A stretch of DNA of 64,000 nucleotides from Candidatus Omnitrophota bacterium (GCA_041666865.1 JBAYGD010000006.1:20390-84389); one strand, 5' to 3'. Positions 3 through 17,561 are shown, counted from the first letter of the stretch. Numbers and translations: made by a program. Notes: a model not told the origin generated them from the sequence alone.

Positions 3-266
3 GCGGGTGCGAGTCCCGAAAAGTACGGGGTGACCGTGGATTTCAGCGCCGGAGGACTTGCCTTTCATACGGACGAAAACTACCGGCCGGAGAGCCTGCT
101 TGAAGTCACCGTCGAATTGCCCGCCGAATCCCTTCCGATGAACTGCCTTGCCAAAGTCGTCCGTACGGTACGGGAGGGCTCTTTCTGGCGAGTGGCCGTT
201 TTGTTCATGGACCTCCCGGCGGGAGACCGCGCGCGAATCGATCGCTTCGTCGCCGGGGAGTCTTGA
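3..266 (+). CDS. PilZ-domain protein, C-terminal fragment (5' end lies outside window)
   Basis: Frame is open from the window edge (the track lists it only from an internal Met at 30). DFSAGGLAF matches the PilZ DxSxxG motif. Stop at 264-266. Confidence 0.5.
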   Translation, partial: AGASPEKYGVTVDFSAGGLAFHTDENYRPESLLEVTVELPAESLPMNCLAKVVRTVREGSFWRVAVLFMDLPAGDRARIDRFVAGES

Positions 267-267
267 C

Positions 268-3200
268 ATGACCAGGCCCGGGTATTTCAACGAACCGACA
301 CAGCTCGAGATCCATAAACGAATCGTTCGCTGGGCCTTTTTGATCTCCTTTGCGGTTTTCTGCGTTTTTTTTATCACCACGCTGTCAAGCTGGCGATCTT
401 CCCTCGAGATGCTTCAATCGCGGCAAAAAACCCTCTTCCATGAAATGACGTCCGAGATGGTTTACCGGATGGAGAACGAATTTCATCATAGCGTCGAATT
501 TTTGAGATATATGCAAAACTTTTATTCGGGAAGCGAGGTTGTGAACCGTAGTGAATTCCGTGCTTTTCTGGATACCGACAGCCTGAAATCCAGGTACCCC
601 GGCCTCGTGGCCATCCGGTTTATCGAACGTGTTCCGGACCGCGAGGAGCTCGCTTTCGTGGACTCCGTCAAAAACGACAAAAGCCTTTCGAACGCGGGCT
701 ATCCCGGATTTTCCGTCCAAAGGATCCGCGTGCCCGGGAGTTATTTTTCCTCCCGCAACGAAGCCTATGTCATCAAGTACGTTGAACCGTATATCGGGAA
801 TGAAAAAATGATGGGGCTCGATGTTGCTTCGGACCCGGACCGGCAAAAGCTCTACGACCGGGCCTGGATGAGTGGCGAGGTCTCTTTCGGGCATATCACG
901 GAATGGACGAGCGGAAAGAGCGCTTTCACGATTTGTCTTCCGGTCTACGCCAACGACAAGCCGGCTGGCACCATCCTCGAAAGGCGCGACGCCCTCCGCG
1001 GTTTTCTGGACGTGGTGATTCTCTCGGAGGAATTTTTTCCGGAAATCTTCAAACAGACGACCCTGTTTTCAAAAATCGGATGCGCCATCTACAGCGGAGA
1101 TATTCCGTCGGAAAGCGAGGCTAAACGCGCTCCGGTGTTCGCGAATTTCATCCCCCTGGATCGGCGCGGGGTTCAGAAGAAGCCGGCTTTCGGGACGAGG
1201 CAGATCTTCAAGATTGAAGACAGCTGCTGGACGTTGTTTTTTTATGCCACCGAGGACTTCCGCCGCGCGGAGGTGGGCAGCGAAATGCCGCTCATGATTC
1301 TGATCCAGGGGACCCTGCTGAGTTTTCTCGTCTGGGGGATCCTTTATGTCCTTTCGGTCACCCGGCTGAACGCCGTCTTGATTGCCGACCGGCTGACCTT
1401 CGACGTTCAGGAATCCGAGCAGCGCATCCGGGCTTTGGCGCAGTCCGCGATGGACGCCGTCATCTCCACCGATCAGCGGGAAGACATCATTTTCTGGAAC
1501 CTCGGTGCGCAGAAAGCGTTTGGCTTCACGGAATCGGAAGCGCTCGGGAAACCCCTGAAGATTCTTTTCCCCCCGGGTTCCGGGGTGCGTCCCTGGGGCT
1601 TCAAGCAGCACGTCCGGATGGCGTTCGGGGATTCGGGTGGGAAGGTCATCAGTTTGACCTGCTTGAAGCGGGATGAAAGTGAGTTCCCGGCCGAAATTTC
1701 GATGTCGAGCTGGAAGCGGGGAGCCGATGATTTTCTAACCGTCGTTGTCCGCGACGTCAGCGACCAGGAGAAGATGCGCAACGACCTGAGAGACAGCCGG
1801 GACCGATACGCCACGCTGATCGAAGAGTCGCCGGACCCGATGATTTCGCTCGATGTCTTCGAATCGATTTGCGCGGTGAACTCTGCGGCTGAGGGCATGT
1901 CGGGACGACTCCGGGCCGAGCTGATTGGCCAATCCCTGAAACAAGTCGGTTTTATTATGCCCGAATCCCTGGAGACGCTCCGAAAAGAGTTTGAATGGTC
2001 CGTGTCGGGCCAGACGCGTGTTCCTTTTCCGATCGATGTCCGGCAGAGCGCCAATGCGGTCCGGTCTTACGAGGTGAACCTTCATGTGGTCCGGAGCCGG
2101 GAAAAGATCGATTCCGTTTTGGCGGTTTTTCGCGACATCACGGAGCGCAAAAAAATCGAAAAAATCCAGAACGTTGAACATACGGTTCTCCGGATCCTGG
2201 CGTCGGCTGTCACCGAGGAGGACGGCGCGGCCGGGATCGTCGAATACCTCTGTAAGGCATTTCATTGGGCCGTCGGATCGCTGTGGCTGCTCGACGAACA
2301 AGCCGGGCAGCTTCGGGCGGTTTTTGCTTCGGATGGAGCGTTTGAACCCTACCGGGCTGTTACCCTGCAGCAGGCGTGCGCCAAGGGGGTCGATCTTCCG
2401 GGCCGGGTCTGGGAGGCCCAGGGAAGCGTTTGGATCGAGAACGCCGCTTTGGAGCTCGGGCTCGCCCGGCGTCCGCTCGCTTCGGAGCTTCGCTTACAAA
2501 ATGCGGTTGGCTTTCCCATCTTCAACCAAAATGATTTTATGGGAGTCCTGGAGCTTGTGGGATTCGGGGTGGGGAGGCCAGACGAAGGTTTTTTGAATTT
2601 GTTCGGGATGATTTCCCAGCAGGTCGGGCAGTTCCTGTGGCGCAAGCGGGCGGAGGCCCAGCTGAAGAGGGCGGAGCAAGCGCTCGGGGAGCGCGAGCGT
2701 CTGTCCATGGTGTCGCAGCTTGCGGCGGGGGTGGCCCATGAGGTCAAGAACCCGTTGACGATCATTTTGCAGGGGGCAGAATATCTGCAGCGGGACAAGG
2801 ACCTCAAAGACCCCGTCTCGCTCGAAGTCTTGGATTGTATGAAGCAGGCTGTGGAACGTGCCGATAAGATTGCTAAGGGGTTGGTGGAGCTTTCGAAGCC
2901 CGAATCGGTCAGTTTGCAGTCGGAAGATATTCACGCCGTGATCGAGACCAGTCTTTTGCTGATCAAAAACCGGATCGAGCACTCTGGCGTTCGAATCATC
3001 AAGCAATGGCAGCGCGATCTTCCGAAGGCCGTGATCGACCGCGGCAAGATCGAGCAGGTTTTCATCAACCTCCTGACGAACGCGATCGAGGCCATGGTCT
3101 CGGGGGGAGGCCTGCTGACTGTCCGAACTTGGTCGGAGGGCTCGGCAAAGAAGGGGAGAACCGTCGTGGTCGAGATCGAGGATAGCGGGCCGGGGATTCC

Positions 3201-3408
3201 GGCTCATATCCTTCCCAAGCTTTTTACGCCCTTTGTGACCGGAAAGCGGGCGCAGGGGGGCAGCGGACTCGGGCTCCCGATCGTTAGAAACATTATGGAA
3301 ACGCATAAGGGGAAGGTGGCGATCGAGAATGTCCCGGCCGGGGGAGCGAAAGTGACGCTGGTCTTTCCTTGTGAGCGCGACGCAACCGTCATCGGAGGAA
3401 CTCTATGA
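268..3408 (+). CDS. Multi-sensor histidine kinase (TM, periplasmic CHASE-like domain, TM, 2x PAS, GAF, HisKA, HATPase_c)
   Basis: Track ORF 148..3408, trimmed to the first Met after the PilZ stop (MTRPGYF). Two TM helices flank a ~300-aa periplasmic region with CHASE-like motifs (YVIKYVEPYIGNEKMMGLDV). H-box HEVKNPLTII. G-boxes DSGPGIP and GGSGLGLPIV. Confidence 0.85.
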   Translation: MTRPGYFNEPTQLEIHKRIVRWAFLISFAVFCVFFITTLSSWRSSLEMLQSRQKTLFHEMTSEMVYRMENEFHHSVEFLRYMQNFYSGSEVVNRSEFRAFLDTDSLKSRYPGLVAIRFIERVPDREELAFVDSVKNDKSLSNAGYPGFSVQRIRVPGSYFSSRNEAYVIKYVEPYIGNEKMMGLDVASDPDRQKLYDRAWMSGEVSFGHITEWTSGKSAFTICLPVYANDKPAGTILERRDALRGFLDVVILSEEFFPEIFKQTTLFSKIGCAIYSGDIPSESEAKRAPVFANFIPLDRRGVQKKPAFGTRQIFKIEDSCWTLFFYATEDFRRAEVGSEMPLMILIQGTLLSFLVWGILYVLSVTRLNAVLIADRLTFDVQESEQRIRALAQSAMDAVISTDQREDIIFWNLGAQKAFGFTESEALGKPLKILFPPGSGVRPWGFKQHVRMAFGDSGGKVISLTCLKRDESEFPAEISMSSWKRGADDFLTVVVRDVSDQEKMRNDLRDSRDRYATLIEESPDPMISLDVFESICAVNSAAEGMSGRLRAELIGQSLKQVGFIMPESLETLRKEFEWSVSGQTRVPFPIDVRQSANAVRSYEVNLHVVRSREKIDSVLAVFRDITERKKIEKIQNVEHTVLRILASAVTEEDGAAGIVEYLCKAFHWAVGSLWLLDEQAGQLRAVFASDGAFEPYRAVTLQQACAKGVDLPGRVWEAQGSVWIENAALELGLARRPLASELRLQNAVGFPIFNQNDFMGVLELVGFGVGRPDEGFLNLFGMISQQVGQFLWRKRAEAQLKRAEQALGERERLSMVSQLAAGVAHEVKNPLTIILQGAEYLQRDKDLKDPVSLEVLDCMKQAVERADKIAKGLVELSKPESVSLQSEDIHAVIETSLLLIKNRIEHSGVRIIKQWQRDLPKAVIDRGKIEQVFINLLTNAIEAMVSGGGLLTVRTWSEGSAKKGRTVVVEIEDSGPGIPAHILPKLFTPFVTGKRAQGGSGLGLPIVRNIMETHKGKVAIENVPAGGAKVTLVFPCERDATVIGGTL

Positions 3409-3779
3409 GCCATAAAATCATGCTTGTTGACGACGAAATCGACTGTCTGAGAATGATGAAATTGAATCTGGAAGCGGTCGGGGGCTATCATGTCCAGGTC
3501 GAGAGCCGGGCCGTCAAGGCACTCGAGACCGCCAGGACCTTCAAGCCCGATTTGATTTTCCTCGATCTCGTGATGCCCGAGATGGACGGTTCGGATGTGG
3601 CCTGTGCGCTCAAGGCGGACCCGCAGCTGGCCAAGATTCCGGTTGTTTTTCTGACCGCAACCGTGACCGAATCGGAAGTCTCCCAAACCGGACAGCGGAT
3701 CGGCGGCCAAGTATTTCTCGCAAAGCCCGTGACCGTCAAACAATTGACCGACTGCATTCAACAAATCCTGGGTGAGTAA
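3405..3779 (+). CDS. Stand-alone response regulator receiver (CheY-like, no output domain)
   Basis: 124 aa. IMLVDDE...DLIFLDLVMPEMDG...LAKPV receiver signature. ATGA overlap with the kinase stop. Confidence 0.9.
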   Translation: MSHKIMLVDDEIDCLRMMKLNLEAVGGYHVQVESRAVKALETARTFKPDLIFLDLVMPEMDGSDVACALKADPQLAKIPVVFLTATVTESEVSQTGQRIGGQVFLAKPVTVKQLTDCIQQILGE

Positions 3780-3784
3780 AAGCG

Positions 3785-5050
3785 ATGCCAAATTATCAAT
3801 ACCGGGCTAAAGACGGCCGCGGGAAAACCGTCGATGGGTTGATGGAAGCGGCCAGTGAGGGAGAAGCCGTCGAAAAAGTCAACCGGCTTGGGCTTCTTCC
3901 GGTCCGAGTCGAACTGACGGCGGCACCCGTCAAGCCCGAGCCGGTGCAGAAAAGCGAAACCGAAGAAAAGGCTCCGGCCCGCCCCGTTGCGCGCAAAGCG
4001 CCCGCGAAGGGCGGTCCGATCAAGAGCAAGGAGATCACGGCGTTTGGCAGACAGCTCTCGAGCCTGATCCGCTCGGGGGTCCCTATTCTCAAGGCCATCG
4101 GCATCATCAGTCAGCAGTCCGACAGCGCGGCGTTCAAAAAAATGCTCGATCAAATCTACGAGGACGTCAAAAACGGCGCTCCTTTTTCGGCGTCCCTCGG
4201 GAAGTTTCCCGGTTTATTCCCCCCTCTTTATACCGCGCTCGTTGCGGCCGGAGAATCCACCGGGAACCTGGATCAGTCTCTTCTGAGGGTCACCGAATAC
4301 AGGCAAAAACAGGAGGACATCGTTTCCCGCGTCCGGGCGGCCCTGATCTACCCGATGCTGATGGGCATCACGGGGCTCGGGACCATTATTTTCATGCTCA
4401 CTTTTGTCATGCCCAGGCTTTTGGGCATCTTTGCGCGCCTTGGGGGCGAGTTGCCCCTGCCGACGAGGATTCTGATCGGGACAAGCGATGCGCTCAGGCA
4501 GCCCTGGATCTGGGTTGGCGTCGCGGCGGCCGTTTTGGCCGGTGTGGTCTTGAGCCGTCAGAAAAATGAAAAGCACGCTCTGGCCCTGAGTCTTTTTGTT
4601 TTGGGGATCCCGCTTCTCGGGGACTTCGCCCTGAAAATAGAAATTGCGCGCTTTACGCGGACCATGGAGCTTTTGATCAAAAGCGGCATCTCCGTTCTTG
4701 CGGCGATCCGCACCACGGCGCCCGTGATCGCGAACCTGGTCCTGCGCAACGACCTCCTGAAGTGCCTGCAGGATATCAGCGAGGGCGGCTCGTTCGGCAG
4801 AAGCCTCCGGAGGTCGAAGCGTTTTCCGAGTTTCATGATCAATCTGATCAGCGTTGGTGAAGAATCGGGCAAGCTCGATGAATCGCTCGGAGAAATCGCG
4901 AATTTTTACGAGCGTGAAACCGACGAGGCGGTGCGCATTCTGACCTCGCTCCTGGAGCCTTTGATGATCCTCGGGATGGGCCTGGTGGTCGGCTTCATCG
5001 TTGTGGCGATGCTGCTTCCCATGTTCGAAATCAACATGATGGTGAAATAA
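3785..5050 (+). CDS. gspF: Type II secretion / type IV pilus platform protein GspF/PilC family
   Basis: 421 aa with two T2SSF repeats (LSSLIRSGVPILKAI ... LLIKSGISVLAAI) and three TM segments. Starts 5 nt after the receiver stop. Confidence 0.85.
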   Translation: MPNYQYRAKDGRGKTVDGLMEAASEGEAVEKVNRLGLLPVRVELTAAPVKPEPVQKSETEEKAPARPVARKAPAKGGPIKSKEITAFGRQLSSLIRSGVPILKAIGIISQQSDSAAFKKMLDQIYEDVKNGAPFSASLGKFPGLFPPLYTALVAAGESTGNLDQSLLRVTEYRQKQEDIVSRVRAALIYPMLMGITGLGTIIFMLTFVMPRLLGIFARLGGELPLPTRILIGTSDALRQPWIWVGVAAAVLAGVVLSRQKNEKHALALSLFVLGIPLLGDFALKIEIARFTRTMELLIKSGISVLAAIRTTAPVIANLVLRNDLLKCLQDISEGGSFGRSLRRSKRFPSFMINLISVGEESGKLDESLGEIANFYERETDEAVRILTSLLEPLMILGMGLVVGFIVVAMLLPMFEINMMVK

Positions 5051-5061
5051 ACGGACCGGCG

Positions 5062-5859
5062 ATGCTGAAACGATTGTTCCTCCAAGGGGCTTGTTTGGGG
5101 ATGGTGCTGGGTATTTTTTTAGGGGCGAAGGGAAGTCCTCCGACCTGGGAAGAATTGAAAGGCGACCATTTTATCGTCTATTACACCGGCGCGGGTGACT
5201 TTGCGAAGGACGTCCTGCGAAAGGCGGAGGAATGTTATTCCCGGGTCGGTGAAGATCTCGGATACGCTCGGCATTCGAAATTTTGGCAATGGGAAAAACG
5301 GGTTAAGATCTACATTTACAAAACCCACGAGGATTTCGTTCGCGGGACGGGCCGGCAGAAATGGTCGCACGGGTATGCCGATTATCATGCCAAAAAGATC
5401 TTCAGCTATGAGTGGAAAGAAGGATTTCTGGACGCCCTGTTGCCTCATGAAATTACGCATCTGATTTTCCGGGATTACGTCGGGTTCCGGGGCGAAGTTC
5501 CGGTTTGGCTCGACGAGGGGGTTGCGCAGTGGCAGGAGCCCGCCAAGCGGGGGGCTGTCCGGCAGCTCATGAAGTTTTATTTTTATGATGAAAAGGGGTA
5601 TTCGCTGAAAAACCTGACCGAGATCGACGTTCAGAACGTCAGAACGAAACTTGCCGTGGATCTTTTTTACACTCAGTCGGCCTCGGTCATCGATTTTCTG
5701 GTGACCAAGTACGGGGGCGACCGTTTTGTCGACTTTTGCCGTCAACTGCGGGACGGGAAAAAAATGGACGAGGCCCTGCCTTTCGCCTATCCGCTGCAGA
5801 TCCGCAATCTCAACGAACTGGAGGAGCAATGGAAACAGTACATTTTAAGCGCACCGTAA
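5062..5859 (+). CDS. Predicted zinc metallopeptidase, Peptidase_MA-like (HExxH ... E), signal/TM N-terminus
   Basis: HEITHLIF followed by WLDEGVAQWQE gives the gluzincin HExxH plus downstream Glu ligand. Hydrophobic N-terminus. Lies between gspF and gspG. Confidence 0.6.
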   Translation: MLKRLFLQGACLGMVLGIFLGAKGSPPTWEELKGDHFIVYYTGAGDFAKDVLRKAEECYSRVGEDLGYARHSKFWQWEKRVKIYIYKTHEDFVRGTGRQKWSHGYADYHAKKIFSYEWKEGFLDALLPHEITHLIFRDYVGFRGEVPVWLDEGVAQWQEPAKRGAVRQLMKFYFYDEKGYSLKNLTEIDVQNVRTKLAVDLFYTQSASVIDFLVTKYGGDRFVDFCRQLRDGKKMDEALPFAYPLQIRNLNELEEQWKQYILSAP

Positions 5860-6263
5860 ACCCGCAATCCGGCTTCACGCTGATCGAGCTGATGCTTGTC
5901 GTGATCATTATCGGCGCCCTGGTGGCGATGGTCCTCCCTCGCCTTGCGGGCCGCTCCGAACAGGCGAGGGTGCAGGCTGCTCAGGCGGATATCCGCTCGA
6001 ACATCGCCACGGCCTTGAAGCTTTACGAACTCGATAACGGGTCCTTTCCGCCCTCGGGGGAGGGGCTGAACGCGCTTTTCACGAAATCAGGGAACGCGCG
6101 AAACTGGAACGGGCCGTATTTGGAGAAAAGGCCGCTGGATCCCTGGGGCCACGACTATAAATACGACAGCCCGGGAACGCACCGCCCCGGGGATTACGAC
6201 CTGTCGTCGGCAGGCAAAGACGGGGCCGCCGGCACGACCGATGATATTACCAATTGGGATTAA
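5829..6263 (+). CDS. gspG: Major pseudopilin GspG (type II secretion)
   Basis: Track ORF 5736..6263 starts at TTG; trimmed to the ATG giving METVHFKRTVNPQSG/FTLIELMLVVIIIGAL (prepilin cleavage motif with Glu+5). GspG C-terminal signature NGPYLEK...PLDPWGHDYKY...DYDLSSAGKDG. Confidence 0.85.
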   Translation: METVHFKRTVNPQSGFTLIELMLVVIIIGALVAMVLPRLAGRSEQARVQAAQADIRSNIATALKLYELDNGSFPPSGEGLNALFTKSGNARNWNGPYLEKRPLDPWGHDYKYDSPGTHRPGDYDLSSAGKDGAAGTTDDITNWD

Positions 6264-6651
6264 AAAAAGGTCCCGCGGTTTTACCCTGATCGAGGTTCTG
6301 ATCACGGTCGCCGTTCTTTCGGTGGCAACCGTTTTCATCTCGCAGGGCAACCTCTTGAGCGGGGCCGTGTACGGGCGTTCCGTCAACCGCCTGGAAATGC
6401 AGAATTGGGCGGCCGAAAAGATCTGGAAAGTCAAAGAAGAGATTCTGGGCGCCGAATTCCCAGAAGTCGGGGCCTCGAGCGGTGCGGTGCAGGGAAAAAC
6501 CCGCGCCTACCGGTGGACCCTGGACGTCAAAGAGGAGCGCGAGAAGCTTTGCACGGCGTACGAGATTTCGCTTGCCGTGACGTGGCCCGAAGGCGGCGGC
6601 GAAGCCCTTGCCGAGCGTTATGGCGCGATCCTGAAGGTGAAAGGTAAATAA
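6241..6651 (+). CDS. Minor pseudopilin, GspI-like
   Basis: N-terminal RG/FTLIEVLITVAVLSV prepilin motif, 136 aa. Start codon uncertain: it overlaps the gspG end and an internal alternative start is possible. Confidence 0.65.
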   Translation: MILPIGIKKRSRGFTLIEVLITVAVLSVATVFISQGNLLSGAVYGRSVNRLEMQNWAAEKIWKVKEEILGAEFPEVGASSGAVQGKTRAYRWTLDVKEEREKLCTAYEISLAVTWPEGGGEALAERYGAILKVKGK

Positions 6652-6652
6652 C

Positions 6653-7252
6653 ATGCGCCGCTCCCGAGGGTTCACGCTGATCGAAGTGCTCCTCGTGGTT
6701 TCCCTGGCCGCGCTCATTGGCATGGCCGTCTACTCGATGTTCGCGAGCGCGGTCAATATGATGCACCGGATCAGCGATAATGCGCTGGACGAAGACGCGG
6801 ATATCTTCTTCGAAAAGGTGGACCGTGAGATTTCCTGCCAGGTTGTTTTTAAGGGGATTCCCTTCGAAGGGACGGCATCTTCCATGAGTTTCGCGGCCCC
6901 GATTGCTTTGAATCCGGAGAATCCCGCGGAGCGCGGAGTCGGACGAGTCCGGTACGATTTTGGGGGCTCGTCCCAGGGGTTCGTGAGGCGCCAGCAGAAC
7001 CTTCATCAGGTGTTCAAGACGATTGAGGGCGCGCCGGCGTCCCTGATGACAGCGGCAACGAGTCTTCGGTTTCAGTACTTTGTGTACCGGGAAAAGGACC
7101 AGCTCTACGAGTGGACGGAAGAGTGGAACTCTGCGGAGCAGGACGGACAACTGCCGGCCGCGGTCAGGCTCAAGCTCGAGTGTGCACGGGGAGAGGAGGC
7201 CAAAAAGTATGAGCGGACGATTGCTATCCCGATTGCGGGATCCACGCGGTAG
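6653..7252 (+). CDS. Minor pseudopilin, GspJ-like
   Basis: MRRSRG/FTLIEVLLVVSLAAL prepilin leader. 199 aa, the size typical for GspJ. Confidence 0.7.
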   Translation: MRRSRGFTLIEVLLVVSLAALIGMAVYSMFASAVNMMHRISDNALDEDADIFFEKVDREISCQVVFKGIPFEGTASSMSFAAPIALNPENPAERGVGRVRYDFGGSSQGFVRRQQNLHQVFKTIEGAPASLMTAATSLRFQYFVYREKDQLYEWTEEWNSAEQDGQLPAAVRLKLECARGEEAKKYERTIAIPIAGSTR

Positions 7253-8297
7253 TCTTCTGGTGCTCGCGCTCTGGATGATCGCGGTGGTGGCGATTCTTTC
7301 GGTTTCGATCAGCGAGTATGTCCGCCAGAAAATCGCCCTCTCGGACCGTCTGGACCGGAGGAACTGGCTGGCCGGGATCGCGGAAACGGGGGTCACGCGG
7401 GTGCTGTACAAGCTCCGCCAGAAAAAAGAAGCGGCTGAAGGATATCACGGTTTGAACGATACATATACCAGTGCGGCGGGCGACGTCCGGATGGGGGAAG
7501 GGGCTTTGGCTCTTTCGTATCCGGTGCGGAATCCGTGGACCGGCCAGATGCAGATGCGCTACGGCGTCGAGGACGAAGAGGGCCGATTCAACGTCAACGT
7601 CATCGACGGCAAGAGAATCGCCAAGTTTATCGAAGTGGTCGCCGAGGCGGAGGAGGATCAGGCGAAGGAAATCGCCTACGCGATCGTGGACTGGAGGGAC
7701 ACCAACGATTCCCTGTCTGACCCGAAGTTCGGCGCCGAAGACGATGACTACGAGGACCTGGACCCGCCTTATGAGGCCAAAGACCAGCCCTTCGAATCAC
7801 TCGACGAGCTTTTGCTCGTCCGGGGCATGACCCCAGAGATCTTCGAGCGGATTCAGCCTTTCGTGACGATCTACGGCCCCGGGACGGTCAACATCAACAC
7901 CGCTCCGATGGAAGTTTTGATGGGGCTTGGAATGTCCAAGGAGCTCGCAGGAAAGGTCGTGATGTACCGTGCGGGGCAGGACGGGGAGGAAGGGACCTCC
8001 GACGACCGCGTTTTTATGCAGGCGGCGAATGTTTCCACGGAACTGATGAAGAAGGTCAAGCTGGCCGGCGCGGAATCGACGATGGTCTCACAGATGGTCA
8101 GTAAGGGACAGCTGGGCGTCGACTCGACTCATTTCCGGATCCGAAGCCAGGGCAAAAGCATGCGGAAAAAGCAGATTCTCGAGATCGAAGCAGTCGCCGA
8201 CACCGACGGAGTGATCCTGTCCTGGTCGGTTTCGTCGCCGAGGCGCATGAGCGCGCCGGAGCTGTCTTTGGCTGCGACGGGTACGCAAGAGGGATGA
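7209..8297 (+). CDS. gspK: Minor pseudopilin GspK
   Basis: Track ORF 7080..8297 trimmed to MSGRLL...GSLLVLALWMIAVVAIL. The GTVNINTAP motif of the GspK helix-hairpin-helix region is present. Confidence 0.75.
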   Translation: MSGRLLSRLRDPRGSLLVLALWMIAVVAILSVSISEYVRQKIALSDRLDRRNWLAGIAETGVTRVLYKLRQKKEAAEGYHGLNDTYTSAAGDVRMGEGALALSYPVRNPWTGQMQMRYGVEDEEGRFNVNVIDGKRIAKFIEVVAEAEEDQAKEIAYAIVDWRDTNDSLSDPKFGAEDDDYEDLDPPYEAKDQPFESLDELLLVRGMTPEIFERIQPFVTIYGPGTVNINTAPMEVLMGLGMSKELAGKVVMYRAGQDGEEGTSDDRVFMQAANVSTELMKKVKLAGAESTMVSQMVSKGQLGVDSTHFRIRSQGKSMRKKQILEIEAVADTDGVILSWSVSSPRRMSAPELSLAATGTQEG

Positions 8298-8310: not shown

Positions 8311-9786
8311 TTGAAACTGGTTTTCGGGTTTCCGAAGAACAAAAAAAAACCGGCGGTTCTCGCGGGAGAGGACTTGGTCTGCGTCAATCTCCAGGACCAG
8401 GAGGCCAAGGTCGCCGTTATCACTTCGAAATTGCAGGGCGACAGGCAGGTCAGCCAATTCTTGAGCTTCAGCGGCCAGGTCCCTTCCGCGGACGATCTGT
8501 CGGACCGTGTGTATGCCGCGCTCCAGCAGCTTCCTTTGAAAAATCCGAAGTTCGTCGGGGTGGTTTCCTCCAACCTCGTCGTGACCCGCAATATCGAAAT
8601 CCCGTCGCGCGATCCGGACGAAATTCGGGAAATCCTGAGCCTCCAGGCGTCCCGGCATACCCCTTACGCTCGCGACGAGATCATCATTGATTATATCAAT
8701 CTCGGAGTTTTCAAGAGCGTCTACACCAAAGTCCTTTTTATCATCGTCCCGAGGACGGTGGCCGCCCGCTACTATAATTTGGCCACCCGCCTCCGCTGGA
8801 GGATCGAGAAGATCGTTTTTATTTCGGAGGCGCTCGCCCGGTTTTTCTGCAAGCACCTGAACCTAGGGGGCGAACGCTTGCCGATTTGCATCCTGCAGGT
8901 GGATTCGACTGTCACCGAATTCGTCATCATGTTCCGGGGAGCCGCGCTCTTTGCCCGGAGCATTCCTGTTGGGGCCAAGCATTTTGCCGTGGCCAAGGAG
9001 GGGTATCAGGCCCGCTTTACCGAAGAGCTGAGGCGCTCCTTTGATACCTATCAGGGCGAGAATATCGACGCCATGCCCTCCCAAGTCCTGCTCACGGGCG
9101 CGATCCAGGGGCTCGACGACCTGAGTTTTACGATCGAGGATACGTTCCGTATGACGGTTAGACGGCTCACGGATCTCAACATGATTTCGATGGATGCCGA
9201 AGTCAAGGCGCAATGCGCGGGGCAGAATCTGGCGGTCCTTTCGGCGGCTGCGCCCGGGCTCCTCGTCGACGAACTGGCGGTGGATTTGAGCCCGGAGGAA
9301 AGCAGGCTCAAACGCCGCATGGAAGAAAGGTCGAAGGAGCTGATCAAAGCCGGCGTGCTCGGGATGGTGCTTCTGGGCCTTTTGTGCGTTTCGTTTGCGA
9401 GCCATATCTATCTGAAGACGGCACGGCTGGATCAGCTGACCAAGCGGTATGAGCCCATTCGCAAAGAAACGAAGTCGCTGGAAGAAACGTACGCCCGGGT
9501 CCGGGCGGTGAAGGGCCATTTGGCGGGGCGGGGGAAGGCCCTCAATTCCCTTGCCGAGCTTTGCTCGCTTCTTCCCAACGACATCTATCTGGCCGACATC
9601 AAATACGATACCGGCGGAAAAATGACGATCAAGGGGACCTCCTACACCAAGATTTCGATCTTCGGCTTGGTCGATAAAATGGGGAGCTCCAAGATTTTCA
9701 GGAATGTCCAAACCAAATATATTACCGGAAGGTCGGAAGAAGGCCTTGCTCTTTCCGATTTCGAAATCGCCACGACCGTGACCTGA
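8311..9786 (+). CDS. GspL-like inner-membrane assembly protein built as a PilM-like actin-fold cytoplasmic domain, a TM segment and a PilN-like periplasmic domain
   Basis: 491 aa. N-terminal ~330 aa are PilM/FtsA-like. The TM segment is LIKAGVLGMVLLGLLCVSF. The C-terminal domain is coiled-coil plus a PilN-like fold. Confidence 0.65.
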   Translation: MKLVFGFPKNKKKPAVLAGEDLVCVNLQDQEAKVAVITSKLQGDRQVSQFLSFSGQVPSADDLSDRVYAALQQLPLKNPKFVGVVSSNLVVTRNIEIPSRDPDEIREILSLQASRHTPYARDEIIIDYINLGVFKSVYTKVLFIIVPRTVAARYYNLATRLRWRIEKIVFISEALARFFCKHLNLGGERLPICILQVDSTVTEFVIMFRGAALFARSIPVGAKHFAVAKEGYQARFTEELRRSFDTYQGENIDAMPSQVLLTGAIQGLDDLSFTIEDTFRMTVRRLTDLNMISMDAEVKAQCAGQNLAVLSAAAPGLLVDELAVDLSPEESRLKRRMEERSKELIKAGVLGMVLLGLLCVSFASHIYLKTARLDQLTKRYEPIRKETKSLEETYARVRAVKGHLAGRGKALNSLAELCSLLPNDIYLADIKYDTGGKMTIKGTSYTKISIFGLVDKMGSSKIFRNVQTKYITGRSEEGLALSDFEIATTVT

Positions 9787-9795
9787 AAAGGAACC

Positions 9796-10362
9796 ATGAA
9801 GCTGATTGATTTCAATAAGCTGGCTGAGCATTATCAGCGCATGTCGAAGCGCGAAAAGCTGATTCTTATCGTGACGGCGACGTTTGTCGCCATCTTTCTC
9901 CTCGACCAGGTGATTATCGGCCCCGTTTACCGCACCCTGCGGTCGGTGGACCGCAAGATCATCGATTTGGAGGCCAATATCAAGCAAAGCATCCGCTTGC
10001 TCGGACAGAAGGAACAGATGATGAAGGAGGCCGAATACTACGCCGATTTTGCGCACTCGGCGAAATCCTCCGAGGAAGGGACGCTGGTCCTCCTCAAGCA
10101 CATCCAGGAAATTGCAAGCCAGGTTTCGGTCAATCTTCTCTATGTGAAGCCCGCCGGGGGAGGCCCTGAAAACAAGGAGTCGAACATTTACCGGGTCAAC
10201 CTGGAATGCGAAGGACAAATGGACCAGATCGTGAACTTTTTCTATGCGATCGAGAACTCGAAAATGCTGATGCAGCTCGAGAAGTTTTCCCTTCAACCGG
10301 TCGCCAAAGGGTCCAGCGTCATCCGCTGCAGTGCCACCGTGGCGCTGACCGGAGTGCCCTAG
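9796..10362 (+). CDS. GspM/PilO-like inner-membrane protein
   Basis: 188 aa. One N-terminal TM (LILIVTATFVAIFLL) followed by a coiled coil and a periplasmic alpha/beta domain. Sits directly after the GspL-like gene. Confidence 0.6.
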   Translation: MKLIDFNKLAEHYQRMSKREKLILIVTATFVAIFLLDQVIIGPVYRTLRSVDRKIIDLEANIKQSIRLLGQKEQMMKEAEYYADFAHSAKSSEEGTLVLLKHIQEIASQVSVNLLYVKPAGGGPENKESNIYRVNLECEGQMDQIVNFFYAIENSKMLMQLEKFSLQPVAKGSSVIRCSATVALTGVP

Positions 10363-10370
10363 CCCGAAGA

Positions 10371-11006
10371 TCAGGCCGCGGGCCGGTTCATGCGATTTTC
10401 GAGCGCGCGGGCAAGATCGTTCCTATTCATTTTCTTGAATTCTTCGATCTGGGCGGAAGCGGAGGCGCGGTCTCCTTGGCTTAGAAACGCTCCGACGAGG
10501 GCGACCCGAGCGTTATCCAGATACGCGTTGAGCTCGAGGGCTTTTTGGTAGGAGGCCACCGCTTCTTTGAGCTCCCCCAGAGAAGCGTAGGCGAGTCCGA
10601 GCTGATAGTGGGCGGCGAAACTGTCGGGATTGGCTTTGAGGGCTCCGAGGAAAGACGTCACGGCGTCCTTGGGCTCTTTACGGGCGGCGTGAATCAGGCC
10701 GAGCTGATAGAGCGGGGCATACTCTCCGGGCGCGGCCTCGAGCACCTGCTTGGCATAGGTCAGTGCCTGTTCGAGGTCGCCGGAGCGCGCGAAGCAAAGG
10801 CTCAGCAGGGATTTCACCCGGATGCTCCCGGGGTCGGCCTCGAGGGCTTTTTCGTATTGAATCAGGGCTTCGGGAATCTTTTTTTCGGCGACAAGCTTGT
10901 TCCCTTCGGTGATGTACGGTTCGGCATCGGCGGCGGAGGCCGGAGCTTTTGCCGCAAAGCAGAGGCAGGAGACGATGAGAATCGCGGTGAAAAGTCCGAG
11001 TTTCAT
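10371..11006 (-). CDS. TPR-repeat lipoprotein (PilF/PilW-like secretin pilotin candidate)
   Basis: Track ORF trimmed to MKLGLFTAILIVSC (signal peptide with LIVSC lipobox). At least 4 TPR units. Confidence 0.65.
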   Translation of the reverse strand: MKLGLFTAILIVSCLCFAAKAPASAADAEPYITEGNKLVAEKKIPEALIQYEKALEADPGSIRVKSLLSLCFARSGDLEQALTYAKQVLEAAPGEYAPLYQLGLIHAARKEPKDAVTSFLGALKANPDSFAAHYQLGLAYASLGELKEAVASYQKALELNAYLDNARVALVGAFLSQGDRASASAQIEEFKKMNRNDLARALENRMNRPAA

Positions 11007-11061: not shown

Positions 11062-11433
11062 ATGAAAAACGTACAGGGACTCATTCTCATCCTGTTTTGT
11101 GTTTGTCTTTTTCCCTGTCAGCCGGCGGCGCGCGGGCAAGTTCAGGAGAAGGACGTGGAGCCTGCCGACATCGTCGAGAGCAAACCGGACGCAACGGATC
11201 CCGTCTATCTCCTGGTCACGACCAGGGACCGGCAGCATTTCCGGATCCCCAAGGACATGCAGTTGAAGAAAAAGGGGAATGTCTACTTTTTCGAGCCGAT
11301 GGAAAGCTACGTTTTCAAGCGGACGGTCGAGATGAAGGACGATGTCGACGCGATCAAGAAGCGGCTTGCCCTCATTGAGGAACGGCTCGGGATTATGCCG
11401 GAACAGGAAGATACGGACGCTAAAGCGGTTTGA
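11062..11433 (+). CDS. Small secreted hypothetical protein
   Basis: Track ORF 11032..11433 trimmed to MKNVQGLILILFCVCLF (signal peptide). GGAAGGGG RBS upstream. 123 aa. Confidence 0.5.
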   Translation: MKNVQGLILILFCVCLFPCQPAARGQVQEKDVEPADIVESKPDATDPVYLLVTTRDRQHFRIPKDMQLKKKGNVYFFEPMESYVFKRTVEMKDDVDAIKKRLALIEERLGIMPEQEDTDAKAV

Positions 11434-12937
11434 CGGCAGCGGCCGGGGCCGCCTGGTGAACCGGGATCTCAAAAATGAAACGTGCTCCTTTTCCTTCCTC
11501 GCTTTCCACCCACACCCGCCCGTGGTGCAGTTCCACGATTTCTTTGACGATCGAAAGCCCGAGGCCCGTGCCGCTAATTCCCTGAAGGCTGGGTGTGTCG
11601 AGCTGCACGAATTTCTCGAAGATCCTCGCGCAGTCTTTCTTGGCGATCCCGGGCCCCGTGTCCCGGATGCCGATGCGGACCGTTTTGGCTTGCGGGATCG
11701 CTTTGGCATCGATCGTGACCTTGCCTCCTTCTGGGGTGAACTTCAGGGCATTGCCGACCAGATTCGTCAGGACCTGCCCGATCCTGTCCTGATCCGCTTC
11801 GATCTCGAGAGGCTCCGGGAGGTCGAGCTCGATCGTCACTCCCTTGCTTTTGCCCCAGGCCGTAAATTCATGCGACAGGGAGCCGATGAATTCGTCGAGA
11901 CGGAACGGCGCCAAGCGGATCGAAAACTGCTTGGCCTCCAGCTTGGAGAGGTCCAGGAGGTCGTTGATCAGACGGGTCAGCCGGTTGATGTTATTGAGGG
12001 CGATGGTGGCGAACTTTTCCTGCTGGGGATTGAGCGCGCCGTTCGAGGGGTCGGCCAAAAGCCGCAGCGATCCCTGGATGCAGACCATCGGGGTCCTCAG
12101 GTCATGGGAAATATTGGAGAGGAAAGTCGATTTGAGCTGATCCAGCTCTTTTTGCTTGGTGACGTCGGAAAGCACCGAAACGAAGCCGACCGTTTTCCCG
12201 TCTTCGCTCTCGATGACGGCGTTGCTTGCGCGCAGGACCTTTTTGGTTTGGTCGCTCTGGCTCTGGATGACGATCTCTTTCTCTTTTCTGTCTCCGGCCT
12301 CCTGGGACAAGCTGATCAACTGCTCTTCCTTGAGATCGCTCATGATCGACTTGCCGATTTTGTCGTTTTTATTCACGCCGAGCAGTCTTTCGGCGGCGGG
12401 GTTCATGAGAATGACCTCGCCCTTCTTATTGACCATGATGACGCCCTCGGCCATGGAGCGGACGACCTCTTCGGTTTGCTTCTTCTCTTCCCCGAGCTCC
12501 TTGAAATTTGTGTCCAGCTTTTGATACTGTTCGCTGACGCTCTTGAACTGTTTTTCCACGAAGGCGATGGATTTTTCCTTTTCATCGAGCATGTGGCTGT
12601 AACGCGTGCTGATCTCCTCGGCCTTCACCTGGAGTTTTTTTTCCACTTCCTGCTCGATCGTGTGGCTGATCTTCTGCTTGAGGGCGCTGATCTGATGGGA
12701 GGGGCCGTGGAGGTATTTTTCGAGCTCGCCTTCGAGGGTGGGGGCGGGGGCACTCTCAAACTGTATTTTGGCGGCTTTTTGCTCGGCGGCGTGGCGTTTG
12801 GCGGCGTTATGGGCCAAGATGATTCCTGAACCCACCGCAAGAAGGATGATGACGAGAAAGCCTAGGACGACAGGTTCCAAAAAACCCCCTTTCCGCTCTC
12901 TTTTTTTGTTCTTTGGGACAAATCGCCTATTTGACAT
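11420..12937 (-). CDS. Sensor histidine kinase (TM, coiled coil, PAS, HisKA, HATPase_c)
   Basis: N-terminal TM helix. PAS region (MAEGVIMVNKKGEVILMNPAAERLLG). H-box SHDLRTP. G-boxes DTGPGI and GTGLGLSIVKEIV. Confidence 0.85.
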   Translation of the reverse strand: MSNRRFVPKNKKRERKGGFLEPVVLGFLVIILLAVGSGIILAHNAAKRHAAEQKAAKIQFESAPAPTLEGELEKYLHGPSHQISALKQKISHTIEQEVEKKLQVKAEEISTRYSHMLDEKEKSIAFVEKQFKSVSEQYQKLDTNFKELGEEKKQTEEVVRSMAEGVIMVNKKGEVILMNPAAERLLGVNKNDKIGKSIMSDLKEEQLISLSQEAGDRKEKEIVIQSQSDQTKKVLRASNAVIESEDGKTVGFVSVLSDVTKQKELDQLKSTFLSNISHDLRTPMVCIQGSLRLLADPSNGALNPQQEKFATIALNNINRLTRLINDLLDLSKLEAKQFSIRLAPFRLDEFIGSLSHEFTAWGKSKGVTIELDLPEPLEIEADQDRIGQVLTNLVGNALKFTPEGGKVTIDAKAIPQAKTVRIGIRDTGPGIAKKDCARIFEKFVQLDTPSLQGISGTGLGLSIVKEIVELHHGRVWVESEEGKGARFIFEIPVHQAAPAAAVKPL

Positions 12938-13008: not shown

Positions 13009-13263
13009 ATGAATACCATGACGGCCGAGGTTTTGAGCGCGCAGGAAATTTGCGAAAAACTCGATATTCCGTATTCCAAAATCAATTATTACACGTACCT
13101 TGGTTTTTTCGAAATCGCCCGGAAGGTCGGCAATAAGCGGTTCTACGACGGCGAACAGGTGGAAAGCCGGTTCCGAGCGATCTCGCGGCTCATGAACGAG
13201 GGCTATCCGCTCTCGCTCATCCGCAAGAAACTGATCGGGGGGCGCGGCGATGGGCTACTATAA
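13009..13263 (+). CDS. Small MerR-family HTH DNA-binding protein without effector domain (BldC/excisionase-like)
   Basis: 84 aa. LSAQEICEKLDIPYSKINYYTYLGF matches the MerR-type [18 protein letters not shown]. Overlaps the downstream gene by 14 nt. Confidence 0.6.
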   Translation: MNTMTAEVLSAQEICEKLDIPYSKINYYTYLGFFEIARKVGNKRFYDGEQVESRFRAISRLMNEGYPLSLIRKKLIGGRGDGLL

Positions 13264-14113
13264 GGTTCTCGGTTTCCAGAAAGAGCCGTTTTCGACAAGC
13301 CCCGACCCCGATTTCTTTTACCTCTCAAAGGCGCATGATGCGGCCCTGACCAATATCCTGATCGAATTGCGGCTCAAGCGCGGTTTGGCCGTCATTTTAG
13401 GGGACGTCGGGACCGGCAAGACGACACTTTCCAGGAAGCTCATTCAGGAACTGAAAAGCCGCGAAGACTGCCTTTTCCACATGATTCTCGACCCTTCCTT
13501 CGACGATCCGCTCCTCTTGTTGAGCTATATCTCCAAGAACTTCGGGATCCCAGTGGGCCCGAACGCCTCGATTTTGTCGCTTCGGGAATCGCTCGAGCAA
13601 TTCCTCTTCGAAAAGGCCGTCGTCGAGGGTAAGACCGTGGCCCTGATCGTCGACGAGGCCCAGAAGCTGAGCGACTCCTCGCTCGAGAATCTCCGGGTCC
13701 TGCTGAACTATGAGACCAACGAGTTCAAAATGCTGCAGCTTGTCCTGCTCGGACAGCTGGAACTTCAGTCCAAGATCAAGGAGATCGCTAATTTCTTTGA
13801 CCGGATCAGCTACAAAGGCAAACTCGAAGCGCTGGACTTTTCCGAAATGAAAGAAATGATCTTTTTCCGGATCCGCCGGGCGGGTTATGACTCCGACATG
13901 AACCTTTTTCTGGACGAGGCTCTGCATGGGATCCATGAATCGACGGGCGGCCATCCCCGGCAGGTGACCATGCTTTGCCATCGGGCTCTGAAGTCTTTAT
14001 TGCTCAAGAACAAACTCGTCGTGGATTCGCAGATCATCGAAGAGTTGATAGAAGAGGATGCGAGGACGGGATGGCAGAGAACGAGCCTCTTACTCCAGAA
14101 AAACAGCTATTAA
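13250..14113 (+). CDS. GspA/ExeA-like AAA+ ATPase (type II secretion accessory)
   Basis: Walker A GDVGTGKTTL and Walker B IVDEAQ. ExeA/MshM family architecture. No C-terminal peptidoglycan-binding domain. Confidence 0.7.
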   Translation: MGYYKVLGFQKEPFSTSPDPDFFYLSKAHDAALTNILIELRLKRGLAVILGDVGTGKTTLSRKLIQELKSREDCLFHMILDPSFDDPLLLLSYISKNFGIPVGPNASILSLRESLEQFLFEKAVVEGKTVALIVDEAQKLSDSSLENLRVLLNYETNEFKMLQLVLLGQLELQSKIKEIANFFDRISYKGKLEALDFSEMKEMIFFRIRRAGYDSDMNLFLDEALHGIHESTGGHPRQVTMLCHRALKSLLLKNKLVVDSQIIEELIEEDARTGWQRTSLLLQKNSY

Positions 14114-14775
14114 AGCTCATTGAAAATCCGAAGCAAGCCTCCGTTAGGGCCGCAAGCGTCAAACGGGAGGGAAGGAAATGGTTTTCCCTCGGCGCGTTCA
14201 AAGGACGCCTGGATTTTTGGAAGAGTTTTTCGGTCCGAAAGCCGGCCGTGCAGAAAAGGACGGGAAAGGAAGCCAACCGCATCCGGCGGCTGAACGCGGT
14301 CCTTTGGGTCCTGCTCATTTTCATGGCGGGTTACACGGCCTACAGCCTTTGGGACATGACGACGGGGATCCGGAAGGCATCGAACCTCATTCTGAACCCG
14401 GACCGGAGCGTCGCGGAACCGAAGGAGCCGGAGATCCGGCTGCAAGACGTGGCTTTTTACCTGGAGAAGATCCGGAGTCGAAATATTTTCAATGCCGCGC
14501 CCCCGGAAGCGAAACCGGAGAGGAAAAAAGAGGACGGAGAGCCCGTGACGGACGAGAAGCCGCTCCAGGCCCAAGACGACGAAGCGACCAAGAATTTTTC
14601 GCTGGTGGGGATTGCGTGGTCGGACGATCCGGAAGCGATGATCGAAGACAAGGCGGCAAGCCGGACCCTCTTCGTAAGGCGCGGCCAGTCGCTTCCCAAC
14701 GGCGTGCGGGTGGTGACGATTTTCAAGGAAAAAATCATTTTGAGTTATAAAGGCAAGGAATTCGAACTCAGTTAA
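14071..14775 (+). CDS. GspB/GspC-like bitopic protein (cytoplasmic N-terminus, TM, Lys/Glu-rich linker, C-terminal secretin-binding HR-like domain; no PDZ)
   Basis: Track ORF trimmed to MAENEP (RBS GAGGACGGG). TM segment LNAVLWVLLIFMAGYTAYSLW. C-terminus FSLVGIAW...GVRVVTIFKEKIILSYKGKEFEL fits the GspC HR / PilP pattern. Confidence 0.55.
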   Translation: MAENEPLTPEKQLLKLIENPKQASVRAASVKREGRKWFSLGAFKGRLDFWKSFSVRKPAVQKRTGKEANRIRRLNAVLWVLLIFMAGYTAYSLWDMTTGIRKASNLILNPDRSVAEPKEPEIRLQDVAFYLEKIRSRNIFNAAPPEAKPERKKEDGEPVTDEKPLQAQDDEATKNFSLVGIAWSDDPEAMIEDKAASRTLFVRRGQSLPNGVRVVTIFKEKIILSYKGKEFELS

Positions 14776-16597: not shown

Positions 16598-17561
16598 ATT
16601 CCTTCTCTTTCTCAAACGCCGGGCTTGGCCGATCGCTTTTTCGATCCTGCTGTGTGGGGCGGTCCTTCTCGGGACTCTTTTCTACTGGTTTCCGTTTCAG
16701 GGGGCAAAAGCGCACTCGGTCATGATGGAGCACAAGGTCAGCAAGCTCAAAGAGGAGAGGGAGAGCCTTCAGAAGTTCTACGAAACCCTGAAACAGAAAT
16801 TCCAGGAGCTTGAGGCGGACCGCGACAACGTGCTCGTGCAGACCCGGCAGCTCCTCGGCGAGCGCGAAAAGTACGAGCAGTCCGTGGTCGAGCTCAATGC
16901 GGTGAAGGAAAAACAAAAAACGCTCACCGAAACGAATGCGGTTGTGACCGAGAAAATGACGGCTGCGGAAACGAAGGTCGCGGAGCTGCAGTCGAGCTAC
17001 GACGCTGCCCGGGCCGAGGCCGAATCCTCAAAGGCCAAGCTTGAGCGAACGACCCGCGAGAACGTCGAACTGGCCACGCGGTCTCAAAACACCGAAGCGG
17101 TCATCAATCAATATAAGCAAAAGGCGGAAGAAAACGAAAAATACAGCCCTCTTTTCAACTCCCTGAGCGTGGAGCACGAAGTGCTCAAGGAAAAATACAA
17201 GGCGCTCGAAGCGCGGCTCGGGGACATCCCCGGACAATTCTCTGAAATGGCCAAGGAAAACCAGGTTTTGATCCACGAGACGGCCGACATGCATTACAAT
17301 TTGGGGGTTTTTTACGCCAAGGAAAGGAATTATGAGCGCGCCCTCAAGGAGTTCCAGAAGGCCGTGGATATTGATCCGGGAGACGCCAAGGCCCATTATA
17401 ATCTCGGCTATATCTATGCCGACCACATGCAGGACAGGGCCCGGGCCGAGCTTCACTTCAAGACGTTCCTAGAGCTGGCCCCGGATGACCCCAACTCGGA
17501 CGCCGTCCGGAACTACATTATCAGCCGGGATGTTTTTAGCGCAAAAGTGTTGAAATCCTGA
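16590..17561 (+). CDS. Membrane-anchored coiled-coil plus TPR protein
   Basis: N-terminal TM segment, ~200 aa of heptad-rich coiled coil, and C-terminal TPRs (HYNLGVFYAKERNYERALKEFQKAVDIDP...). Overlaps the secretin stop by 8 nt. Confidence 0.6.
   Translation: MIRFLLFLKRRAWPIAFSILLCGAVLLGTLFYWFPFQGAKAHSVMMEHKVSKLKEERESLQKFYETLKQKFQELEADRDNVLVQTRQLLGEREKYEQSVVELNAVKEKQKTLTETNAVVTEKMTAAETKVAELQSSYDAARAEAESSKAKLERTTRENVELATRSQNTEAVINQYKQKAEENEKYSPLFNSLSVEHEVLKEKYKALEARLGDIPGQFSEMAKENQVLIHETADMHYNLGVFYAKERNYERALKEFQKAVDIDPGDAKAHYNLGYIYADHMQDRARAELHFKTFLELAPDDPNSDAVRNYIISRDVFSAKVLKS

Follow-up and report, generated by a model that had tools for sequence, protein, structure and literature searches.

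A CHASE-domain sensor kinase and a receiver-only response regulator encoded between gspE and gspF in a type II secretion gene cluster of Candidatus Omnitrophota

What does a two-component pair do between the motor gene and the platform gene of a type II secretion system (T2SS)? The question is raised by a 64-kb stretch of DNA from Candidatus Omnitrophota (GCA_041666865.1 JBAYGD010000006.1:20390-84389; referred to here as the window), near whose left end a sensor histidine kinase and a receiver-only response regulator are encoded directly upstream of gspF. The window is contained in a 122-kb contig (ENA ERZ27249449, here L009), in which the genes upstream of it can also be read; window positions correspond to L009 positions minus 9733. 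An earlier note on this DNA had assigned the kinase, the receiver, and gspF to one operon downstream of a PilZ gene, and had proposed that secretion or pseudopilus assembly is gated by a signal. The analysis reported here points to an accessory signalling cassette within the T2SS operon, whose phosphorylated receiver would act on a T2SS component alongside cyclic di-GMP (c-di-GMP), and we give this reading about an even chance of being correct.

The L009 contig carries an uninterrupted run of genes coding for GspE (MshEN-T2SSE-PilZ), PilZ, the kinase, the receiver, GspF, and onward. The PilZ frame entering the window from the left ends with a stop codon at 264-266 and is followed after 1 nt by the kinase ATG at 268; the kinase stop codon (3406-3408) and the receiver start overlap in the sequence ATGA (3405-3408); and a gap of 5 nt separates the receiver stop codon (3777-3779) from the gspF ATG at 3785. 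All these positions and junctions, as read in the earlier note, were exact on re-reading. Shine-Dalgarno-like motifs are present 5' of the kinase, receiver, and gspF starts (GGGGAG, GGAGGA, and GGTGAG, respectively). A consensus scan found no promoter or terminator at the junctions, including 3779/3785, where the earlier note had its one-operon claim depend on the absence of such a signal, and the number of sites was not above that in shuffled sequence; moreover, the junction gaps are of 1-5 nt and therefore too small for either element. A splitting of the operon by a terminator or promoter was accordingly rejected. The genes are tightly packed with operon-like spacing (1-nt gap, ATGA overlap, 5-nt gap), which agrees with the operon originally proposed, and from this we infer co-transcription. 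The G+C content is even along the window and that of the cassette equals that of its flanks; recent horizontal insertion of the cassette was also rejected, on the basis of this G+C content and of the presence of the kinase-receiver module in all deep branches of the phylogeny (see below). Since the remainder of the window contains tuf, rpoB/C, fusA, and ribosomal protein genes, together with tRNA-Thr and tRNA-Trp, the cluster sits in the core chromosome. Rfam and tRNA scans of the window provided nothing bearing on the kinase and the receiver.

The kinase (1046 aa; 268..3408, + strand) shows by Pfam the order transmembrane (TM) segment, CHASE, TM segment, PAS, PAS, GAF, HisKA, and HATPase_c. 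CHASE (PF03924) spans residues 92-282 with 95.3 bits against a gathering cut-off of 25 (E 5e-27), and lies between hydrophobic TM segments at residues 19-37 and 344-362; because of these flanking segments it is assigned to the periplasm. The two PAS domains cover residues 385-499 and 513-628, GAF_2 residues 652-789 (E 1e-8), HisKA residues 815-880, and HATPase_c residues 924-1036. The CHASE, PAS, and GAF domains of the earlier note, and with them its extracytoplasmic sensing domain, were confirmed by Pfam, as were its single-domain receiver, PilZ, and GspF calls. The CHASE region matches PDB 6k62_A (E 2.7e-11), the sole solved relative found by sequence. The phospho-acceptor of the dimerization and histidine phosphotransfer (DHp) domain is His824 (nt 2737-2739) in the H-box AHEVKNPL, and the catalytic boxes are intact: N (NLLTNAIEA, 934), G1 (DSGPGI, 972), F (LFTPF, 985), and G2 (GGSGLGL, 997). 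The best NCBIfam matches of the transmitter are AtoS, ZraS, and NtrB, so that its H-box is of the NtrB/AtoS/ZraS class. Membership in the NCBIfam family NF038348 ('T2SS_HK') was rejected, since the match covers the catalytic domain only and reaches 104.6 bits against a cut-off of 450; related kinases from two other loci, L012 and L014, score 118 and 100 bits, and the second kinase of the cluster (HK2, see below) does not have this model among its top matches. A search with the kinase against 5.8 billion proteins provided a single full-length relative beyond the domain level (P0002, 40% identity); either the kinase family is rare or it was concealed by the word-index filter of the search.

The receiver (124 aa; 3405..3779, + strand) has Response_reg as its only Pfam domain (E 5e-19). 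It contains D9, D10, D54 (nt 3564-3566), T84, and K107, that is, the acidic pocket, the phospho-accepting Asp, and the switch Thr and Lys, and these are kept in 10 out of 10 T2SS-linked orthologues, which are 57-63% identical to it. No other receiver (REC) domain is encoded in the window. Neither of the sigma-54 activator motifs GAFTGA and ESELFGH occurs in any frame of the window, and no histidine phosphotransfer (Hpt) domain, hybrid kinase, or DNA-binding regulator was found in the window or in the 10 kb upstream of it. The match to the NCBIfam model of PorX is weak (49 bits against a cut-off of 300).

Is this arrangement peculiar to one contig? Relatives of GspF with 65-69% identity come from Candidatus Omnitrophota metagenome-assembled genomes, and 16 Omnitrophota loci with this gsp cluster, the window (L009) included, were compared. 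The order gspE-kinase-receiver-gspF occurs in 10 of them (L009, L001, L011, L012/L013, L014, L021, L022, L023, L024, and L025), which were separately sampled and whose GspF proteins are 55-69% identical to that of the window; the recurrence of this arrangement is more than chance. Two of these loci, L012 and L022, encode an identical receiver. In the bearers, the distance between kinase and receiver genes ranges from a 4-nt overlap to 23 nt, and that between receiver gene and gspF from a 1-nt overlap to 73 nt. PilZ, CHASE kinase, and receiver are found together in L009, L021, and L024; L023 has the same three genes followed by a 211-aa open reading frame (ORF) and a second kinase gene; L011 and L014 have the CHASE kinase and the receiver without PilZ; and L001 and L025 are partial contigs with kinase, receiver, and gspF. 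A stand-alone PilZ unique to the window genome was thus rejected, given its presence in L021, L023, and L024. Besides the window, CHASE is found in the kinases of L011, L014, L021, L023, L024, and L025. In L012/L013 and L022, the kinase has 542 aa, about 7 TM helices, and no CHASE, with the same transmitter core and with the receiver kept. The sensor part therefore occurs as CHASE-PAS, CHASE-PAS-GAF, CHASE-PAS-PAS, CHASE-PAS-PAS-GAF, and 7-TM variants, and the transmitter core is near-invariant (QLAAGVAHEVKNPL), with the DHp helix QLAAGVAHEVKNPLxIxLQG across the operon kinases.

Two details of this sensor turnover may be added. In the most divergent lineage (L012 6357-7985; L022 4970-6598), an approximately 7-TM domain without Pfam match replaces the CHASE-PAS-GAF sensor. 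In L023 (4843-6980), the extra 211-aa ORF, also without Pfam match, and the 501-aa second kinase are located between the receiver gene and gspF, and the transmitter of this second kinase shares 45% identity with its counterpart in the L012 7-TM kinase.

In the other 6 loci (L002-L004 and L018-L020), 69-83 nt separate gspE from gspF, and kinase and receiver are both missing; as far as the contigs extend, the remaining gsp cluster, HK2 among its genes, shows no change. Kinase and receiver therefore co-occur: both are present in 10 loci and both are absent from 6. Neighbour-joining trees of GspE and GspF were calculated, the latter rooted with Nitrospiria GspF. The six non-bearers group in a single clade (bootstrap 78) that is nested within the bearers, and the module is found on all deep branches; because of this nesting, the simplest history that the sequences suggest is that the kinase-receiver module is ancestral and was lost once. 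For the cassette as a whole, the simplest history is an ancestral PilZ, CHASE kinase, and receiver with several losses of the free PilZ, the deep nodes being weakly supported. As the loss clade shows, the machine does not require the module, which is an accessory modulator rather than one of its parts.

Which kinase would phosphorylate the receiver? The cluster also codes for HK2, an orphan PAS-HisKA-HATPase kinase (11420-12937, - strand) that is PhoR/PnpS/WalK-like at scores below the equivalog cut-offs and for which no partner regulator was found nearby. HK2 could be the main phosphodonor of the receiver, the CHASE kinase serving another partner: it lacks an adjacent receiver, it is present in 12 of the 12 loci long enough to reach its position (including loci without the CHASE kinase and the receiver), and the window offers no other REC domain. 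However, the clade that lost the receiver still has HK2 in unaltered form, the DHp helix of HK2 (FLSNISHDLRTPM) does not resemble the one that is invariant among the operon kinases, and it is the CHASE kinase whose gene overlaps that of the receiver by ATGA and which is always gained and lost together with it. We consider HK2 as main donor very unlikely. The joint gain and loss, the near-invariant DHp helix, a distinctive receiver alpha-1 (described next), and the ATGA overlap instead support the interpretation of the CHASE kinase and the receiver as a cognate two-component system tied to the T2SS operon, with phosphotransfer between them predicted. The dedicated pair of the earlier note, in cis with a type IV filament-class machine, holds in this comparison: the two genes stand between gspE and gspF in 10 loci and were always lost together, and the near-invariance of the DHp helix is a property of the operon kinases that HK2 does not share.

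The receiver belongs to a large Omnitrophota family of single-domain regulators of about 125 aa (308 matches at E <= 1e-10). Paralogues about 50% identical to it occur in other contexts, behind other kinases, in multi-receiver clusters, and in one case as an orphan; since these contexts are unrelated, the receiver-only architecture is not specific to T2SS. Compared with about 109 paralogues, the T2SS-linked receivers are distinct at alpha-1 positions 14-15 and at positions 24, 63, 86, 102, and 113, the residues specific for the subgroup being L14, L15, A24, S63, T86, Q102, and Q113. Alpha-1 is the main determinant of kinase specificity in receivers. In a neighbour-joining tree the T2SS-linked receivers group together, not exclusively: the smallest clade enclosing them comprises 17 of the 126 tips. 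The genomic context was checked for three members of this clade for which it had been unknown (L029, L030, and L031). The idea that all close relatives of the receiver are T2SS-linked was rejected, as the clade includes L030 in a non-T2SS context. In L029 the receiver lies behind a different kinase, without gspE upstream, and the contig ends directly after the receiver. In L031 (412-1604), a receiver 53% identical to that of the window is located between kinase fragments and a gene for a GspG-like pseudopilin, outside a full gsp cluster. Other paralogues, 50-52% identical, are part of a conserved multi-gene cluster (L026 1372-6375; L027 1368-6375) coding for a PAS kinase, a single receiver, two double-receiver proteins, a REC-HisKA kinase, and another receiver; judged from its gene content, it looks like a multi-step phosphorelay in Omnitrophota.

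What else acts on the motor encoded next to the pair? GspE (730 aa; L009 7452-9644, upstream of the window) is an ATPase with MshEN and T2SSE domains and a C-terminal PilZ domain, and scores 599 bits with its NCBIfam equivalog model (cut-off 630). The stand-alone PilZ gene follows after 1 nt; it codes for 117 aa (L009 9646-9999, + strand; Pfam PilZ, E 3e-14), starts 87 nt before the window, and has its 3' part at window positions 3..266 (+ strand; fragment E 4.5e-13). The protein matches PF07238 with 53.6 bits (cut-off 22.5) and carries the motifs RxxxR (R7NYRR11) and DxSxxG (D43FSAGG48); the corresponding motifs in the PilZ domain of GspE are RAFVR and NLSAGG. Both the domain match and the RxxxR and (D/N)xSxxG motifs are those of a c-di-GMP receptor, and c-di-GMP binding is predicted. 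Compared along its entire length, the stand-alone PilZ shows 36% identity with the PilZ domain at the C-terminus of the neighbouring GspE. The upstream PilZ gene of the earlier note does end 1 nt before the kinase; it is, though, not an independent element, being a paralogue of the PilZ fused to GspE. The C-terminal PilZ fusion is kept in 14 of the 14 loci in which the 3' end of gspE is visible, among them L009, L002, L011, L012, L014, and L019-L024.

Directly before gspE, a stand-alone MshEN protein of 158 aa is encoded (L009 6882-7358), which passes the cut-off of NF053729, the NCBIfam model of the MshE-related c-di-GMP-binding motif (60 bits against 38). The MshEN domain of GspE itself gave no match at E <= 1e-5 with the NCBIfam c-di-GMP-motif model. 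A stand-alone MshEN of about 158 aa is also found in L012, L014, L019, L021, and L022 and is absent from other lineages; its presence or absence is independent of the kinase-receiver module. Further upstream (L009 1-6885), a gene coding for 4606 aa is followed after 2 nt by F1-type ATP synthase genes in an unusual order (epsilon, a 76-aa ORF, delta/OSCP, alpha, gamma, beta). The beta and MshEN genes share 4 nt, so that a common transcript may cover the ATP synthase and T2SS genes. The same order is found in L011, and the part from ATP synthase to gspE in L002 and L012.

A working model can be drawn for this cassette, which comprises the stand-alone PilZ, the CHASE kinase, and the receiver-only regulator between the motor gene gspE and the platform gene gspF. 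Through CHASE the kinase would respond to a periplasmic ligand, and through PAS and GAF to cues from the cytoplasm; it would autophosphorylate at His824 and transfer the phosphoryl group to Asp54 of the co-translated receiver. The phosphorylated receiver would then bind a T2SS component and raise or lower pseudopilus assembly and secretion. The first candidate target is the GspE ATPase, possibly through its PilZ domain or the stand-alone PilZ; it is the likeliest one by analogy with EmvR and DrdR, receiver-only proteins that act on PilB (see below). This action would run alongside the c-di-GMP sensed by the PilZ and MshEN modules. Control by protein contact is the best-supported route because the receiver lacks an output domain and no DNA-binding partner is encoded nearby; the phosphotransfer, the receiver's target, and the sign of its effect are what we infer from the sequences.

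Several observations weigh against the model. The layout of a histidine kinase with a lone receiver seems common in Omnitrophota and is not particular to T2SS. The sister clade retains an otherwise identical gsp cluster without the module, so that the T2SS works without kinase and receiver, and the module could serve a function loosely tied to secretion. Finally, the kinase has an H-box of the NtrB/AtoS/ZraS class, and a transcriptional regulator encoded elsewhere in the genome is possible; kinases of this class are usually paired with NtrC-type transcription factors.

This last point leads to the main rival, a transcriptional route through an unlinked (for instance NtrC-type) regulator: the pair would feed a transcriptional pathway in which the receiver serves as connector, phosphate sink, or phosphorelay intermediate, while a DNA-binding regulator of gsp or cargo genes provides the output. 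The AHEVKNPL box and the AtoS, ZraS, and NtrB matches are what would be expected of a kinase normally working with NtrC-family activators; the multi-receiver, phosphorelay-like clusters of the paralogues, the frequency of kinase and lone-receiver pairs in Omnitrophota, and the small MerR-like gene within the cluster fit it as well. Nevertheless, neither the window nor the 10 kb upstream holds an Hpt domain, a hybrid kinase, or a DNA-binding regulator, the receiver has been kept in cis beside gspF in 10 of the 10 bearers, and its alpha-1 specificity positions are distinctive for the T2SS-linked group. We regard the transcriptional route as unlikely, although less so than the other rivals.

The loss of the module bears on another explanation, genomic hitch-hiking, according to which the two-component system owes its place in the operon to history and controls a function other than T2SS. 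That the sister clade lost the pair with no other change in the cluster, and that related receivers occur in many unrelated contexts, would be natural outcomes of it. Yet the position between two essential T2SS genes has been kept down to 55% GspF identity and through the turnover of the sensor, and in L031 a related kinase-receiver pair is directly followed by a GspG-like gene, a further hint of a link to type IV filaments. Hitch-hiking is, in our judgement, improbable. The reading that remains preferred, that of an accessory cassette acting on the T2SS, suggests that an outside signal may switch secretion on or off. The claim that secretion is signal-gated rather than constitutive went further than this and was overstated, the sister clade running the same T2SS cluster without kinase and receiver.

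A more specific scenario may be considered, tentatively and with more doubt than confidence: a CHASE ligand derived from a host or prey would lead the phosphorylated receiver to dock on GspE or its PilZ modules and so license pseudopilus assembly. Omnitrophota have been proposed to be predatory or host-dependent. If the scenario were true, phosphorylation and c-di-GMP would be integrated on one secretion ATPase, making a T2SS with a built-in phospho-switch, and in Omnitrophota it would provide contact- or cue-triggered release of lytic cargo. We know of no description of direct two-component gating of a T2SS motor. At this locus, one GspE is surrounded by a sensor kinase, a receiver-only protein, two PilZ modules, and two MshEN modules, and the natural lineages with and without the pair make it a compact comparative system for the convergence of phosphorylation and c-di-GMP on a secretion motor. 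The secretion loci of Omnitrophota, from which a host-dependent or predatory lifestyle has largely been inferred, gain a further layer of regulation with it. Its practical value is limited, as the organisms are uncultured; the proteins are amenable to work in vitro.

What machine do these genes belong to? GspF (421 aa; 3785..5050, + strand) has two T2SSF domains (E 1.8e-63) and TIGR02120 as its best NCBIfam match (361 bits, below the cut-off of 424). It is followed on the + strand by an exported zinc metalloprotease with a Pfam Peptidase_MA_2 domain, signal peptide, and HEITH motif (5062..5859); the major pseudopilin GspG (5829..6263; TIGR01710, 135 bits against 88.85; start taken from the gene call of the source contig); a GspI-like protein of 136 aa (6241-6651; Pfam N_methyl, weak NCBIfam GspI match); GspJ (6653-7252; Pfam T2SSJ, weak NCBIfam GspJ match); GspK (7209-8297; Pfam T2SSK_1st, NCBIfam 128.5 against a cut-off of 130); a GspL-like PilM/PilN fusion (8311-9786; Pfam PilM_2 and PilN models only); and a GspM/PilO-like protein (9796-10362; Pfam PilO, and T2SSM at 24.6, below 27.8). 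A divergent unit between gspM and exeA contains a TPR protein (10371-11006, - strand) and HK2. The second half of the cluster, again on the + strand and identified by Pfam, codes for a MerR-like protein of 84 aa with a helix-turn-helix (13009-13263), an ExeA/GspA-like AAA protein (13250-14113), a GspC/B-like protein (13975-14775), the secretin GspD (14795-16597), and a TPR protein (16590-17561). T2SSF, T2SSG, T2SSJ, T2SSK_1st, Secretin, T2SSC, and T2SSE all score above the Pfam gathering cut-off. With GspD, GspE, GspF, GspG, minor pseudopilins including GspK, and GspL/M/C, the core set is present, and the cluster is a complete T2SS-type cluster and not one of type IV pili. Four pseudopilin genes were found (GspG, GspI-like, GspJ, and GspK); neither a separate GspH nor a prepilin peptidase was seen in the cluster.

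Some further features of the cluster were observed. The Peptidase_MA_2 gene lies between gspF and gspG in 15 of the 16 loci, that is, in all that extend past gspF, and its product could be a T2SS cargo or an assembly factor. The MerR-like gene overlaps the start of the exeA-like gene, and its product may regulate transcription of the cluster's second half. Two small proteins with signal peptides and without Pfam match are encoded at 17618-18370 and 11062-11433, bordering sections of the cluster, the 250-aa one having a Lys/Glu-rich tail.

How does the pair compare with known systems? Two receiver-only proteins of Xanthomonas provide the closest mechanistic analogy: EmvR of Xanthomonas oryzae binds PilB and represses its ATPase (PMC11973254), and DrdR of X. 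campestris binds PilB and PilT and stimulates both (PMC13507683). The likeness was drawn from the described mechanisms and not from sequence, and consists of receiver domain(s) only, a phosphorylatable Asp, and contact with a GspE-family ATPase, which in our case is proposed. In contrast to the window receiver, EmvR and DrdR are encoded by orphan genes outside the operon of the machine and act on type IV pili rather than T2SS, and EmvR receives its input from ColS, the kinase of an OmpR-type pair.

The resemblance to PilS/PilR, whose genes adjoin pilC and pilA in clusters for type IVa pili, is confined to genomic placement: in both cases a kinase with an NtrB-like H-box (AHE[IV][KR]NPL) and a regulator lie beside the platform gene of a type IV filament machine. 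PilR, however, is a sigma-54 activator of the NtrC type; it carries AAA+ and DNA-binding domains and drives transcription of pilin, whereas the window regulator is a 124-aa receiver, the window containing no GAFTGA or ESELFGH; and PilS has a polytopic pilin-sensing domain where the window kinase has a periplasmic CHASE. The earlier note had called the receiver PilG/PilH-like. With Response_reg as the sole domain in 124 aa, the likeness to these single-domain CheY-like proteins extends to the domain count and no further: their kinase is the CheA-type ChpA, with methyl-accepting chemotaxis protein (MCP) and CheW-like adaptors, whereas the partner here is a HisKA membrane kinase, and no CheA, CheW, or MCP domains were present in the genes examined, from L009 position 1 to window position 18370.

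T2SS is usually treated as transcriptionally controlled, and direct post-translational control is documented mainly for c-di-GMP/MshEN-type ATPases and for type IV pili. Control of T2SS and type IV pilus ATPases by c-di-GMP through MshEN is established (PMC4624772, PMC5013675). As in MshE, the MshEN of PA14_29490, and the PilZ-FimX-PilB system of Xanthomonas, small signalling modules that control a GspE/PilB-family motor post-translationally have their counterparts in the locus, namely the MshEN protein, the MshEN and PilZ domains of GspE, and the stand-alone PilZ with canonical motifs; unlike here, these systems are not known to have a phosphorelay in cis, and a C-terminal PilZ fusion of GspE with a paralogous free PilZ has not been described for MshE or Xanthomonas PilZ. 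By term search, two Omnitrophota preprints on T2SS-like loci and on pilZ near giant genes mention no response regulators, and 'histidine kinase' appears there solely in an unrelated domain legend. In type IX secretion, the regulator of the two-component pair PorX/PorY is reported to make direct contact with the secretion machine; the pair belongs to another secretion system, and PorX carries an output domain, which the window receiver does not. A two-component module in the operon of a type IV filament-class machine is thus known in kind, and what differs here is that the machine is a T2SS, that the output is a receiver only, and that the input of c-di-GMP is double.

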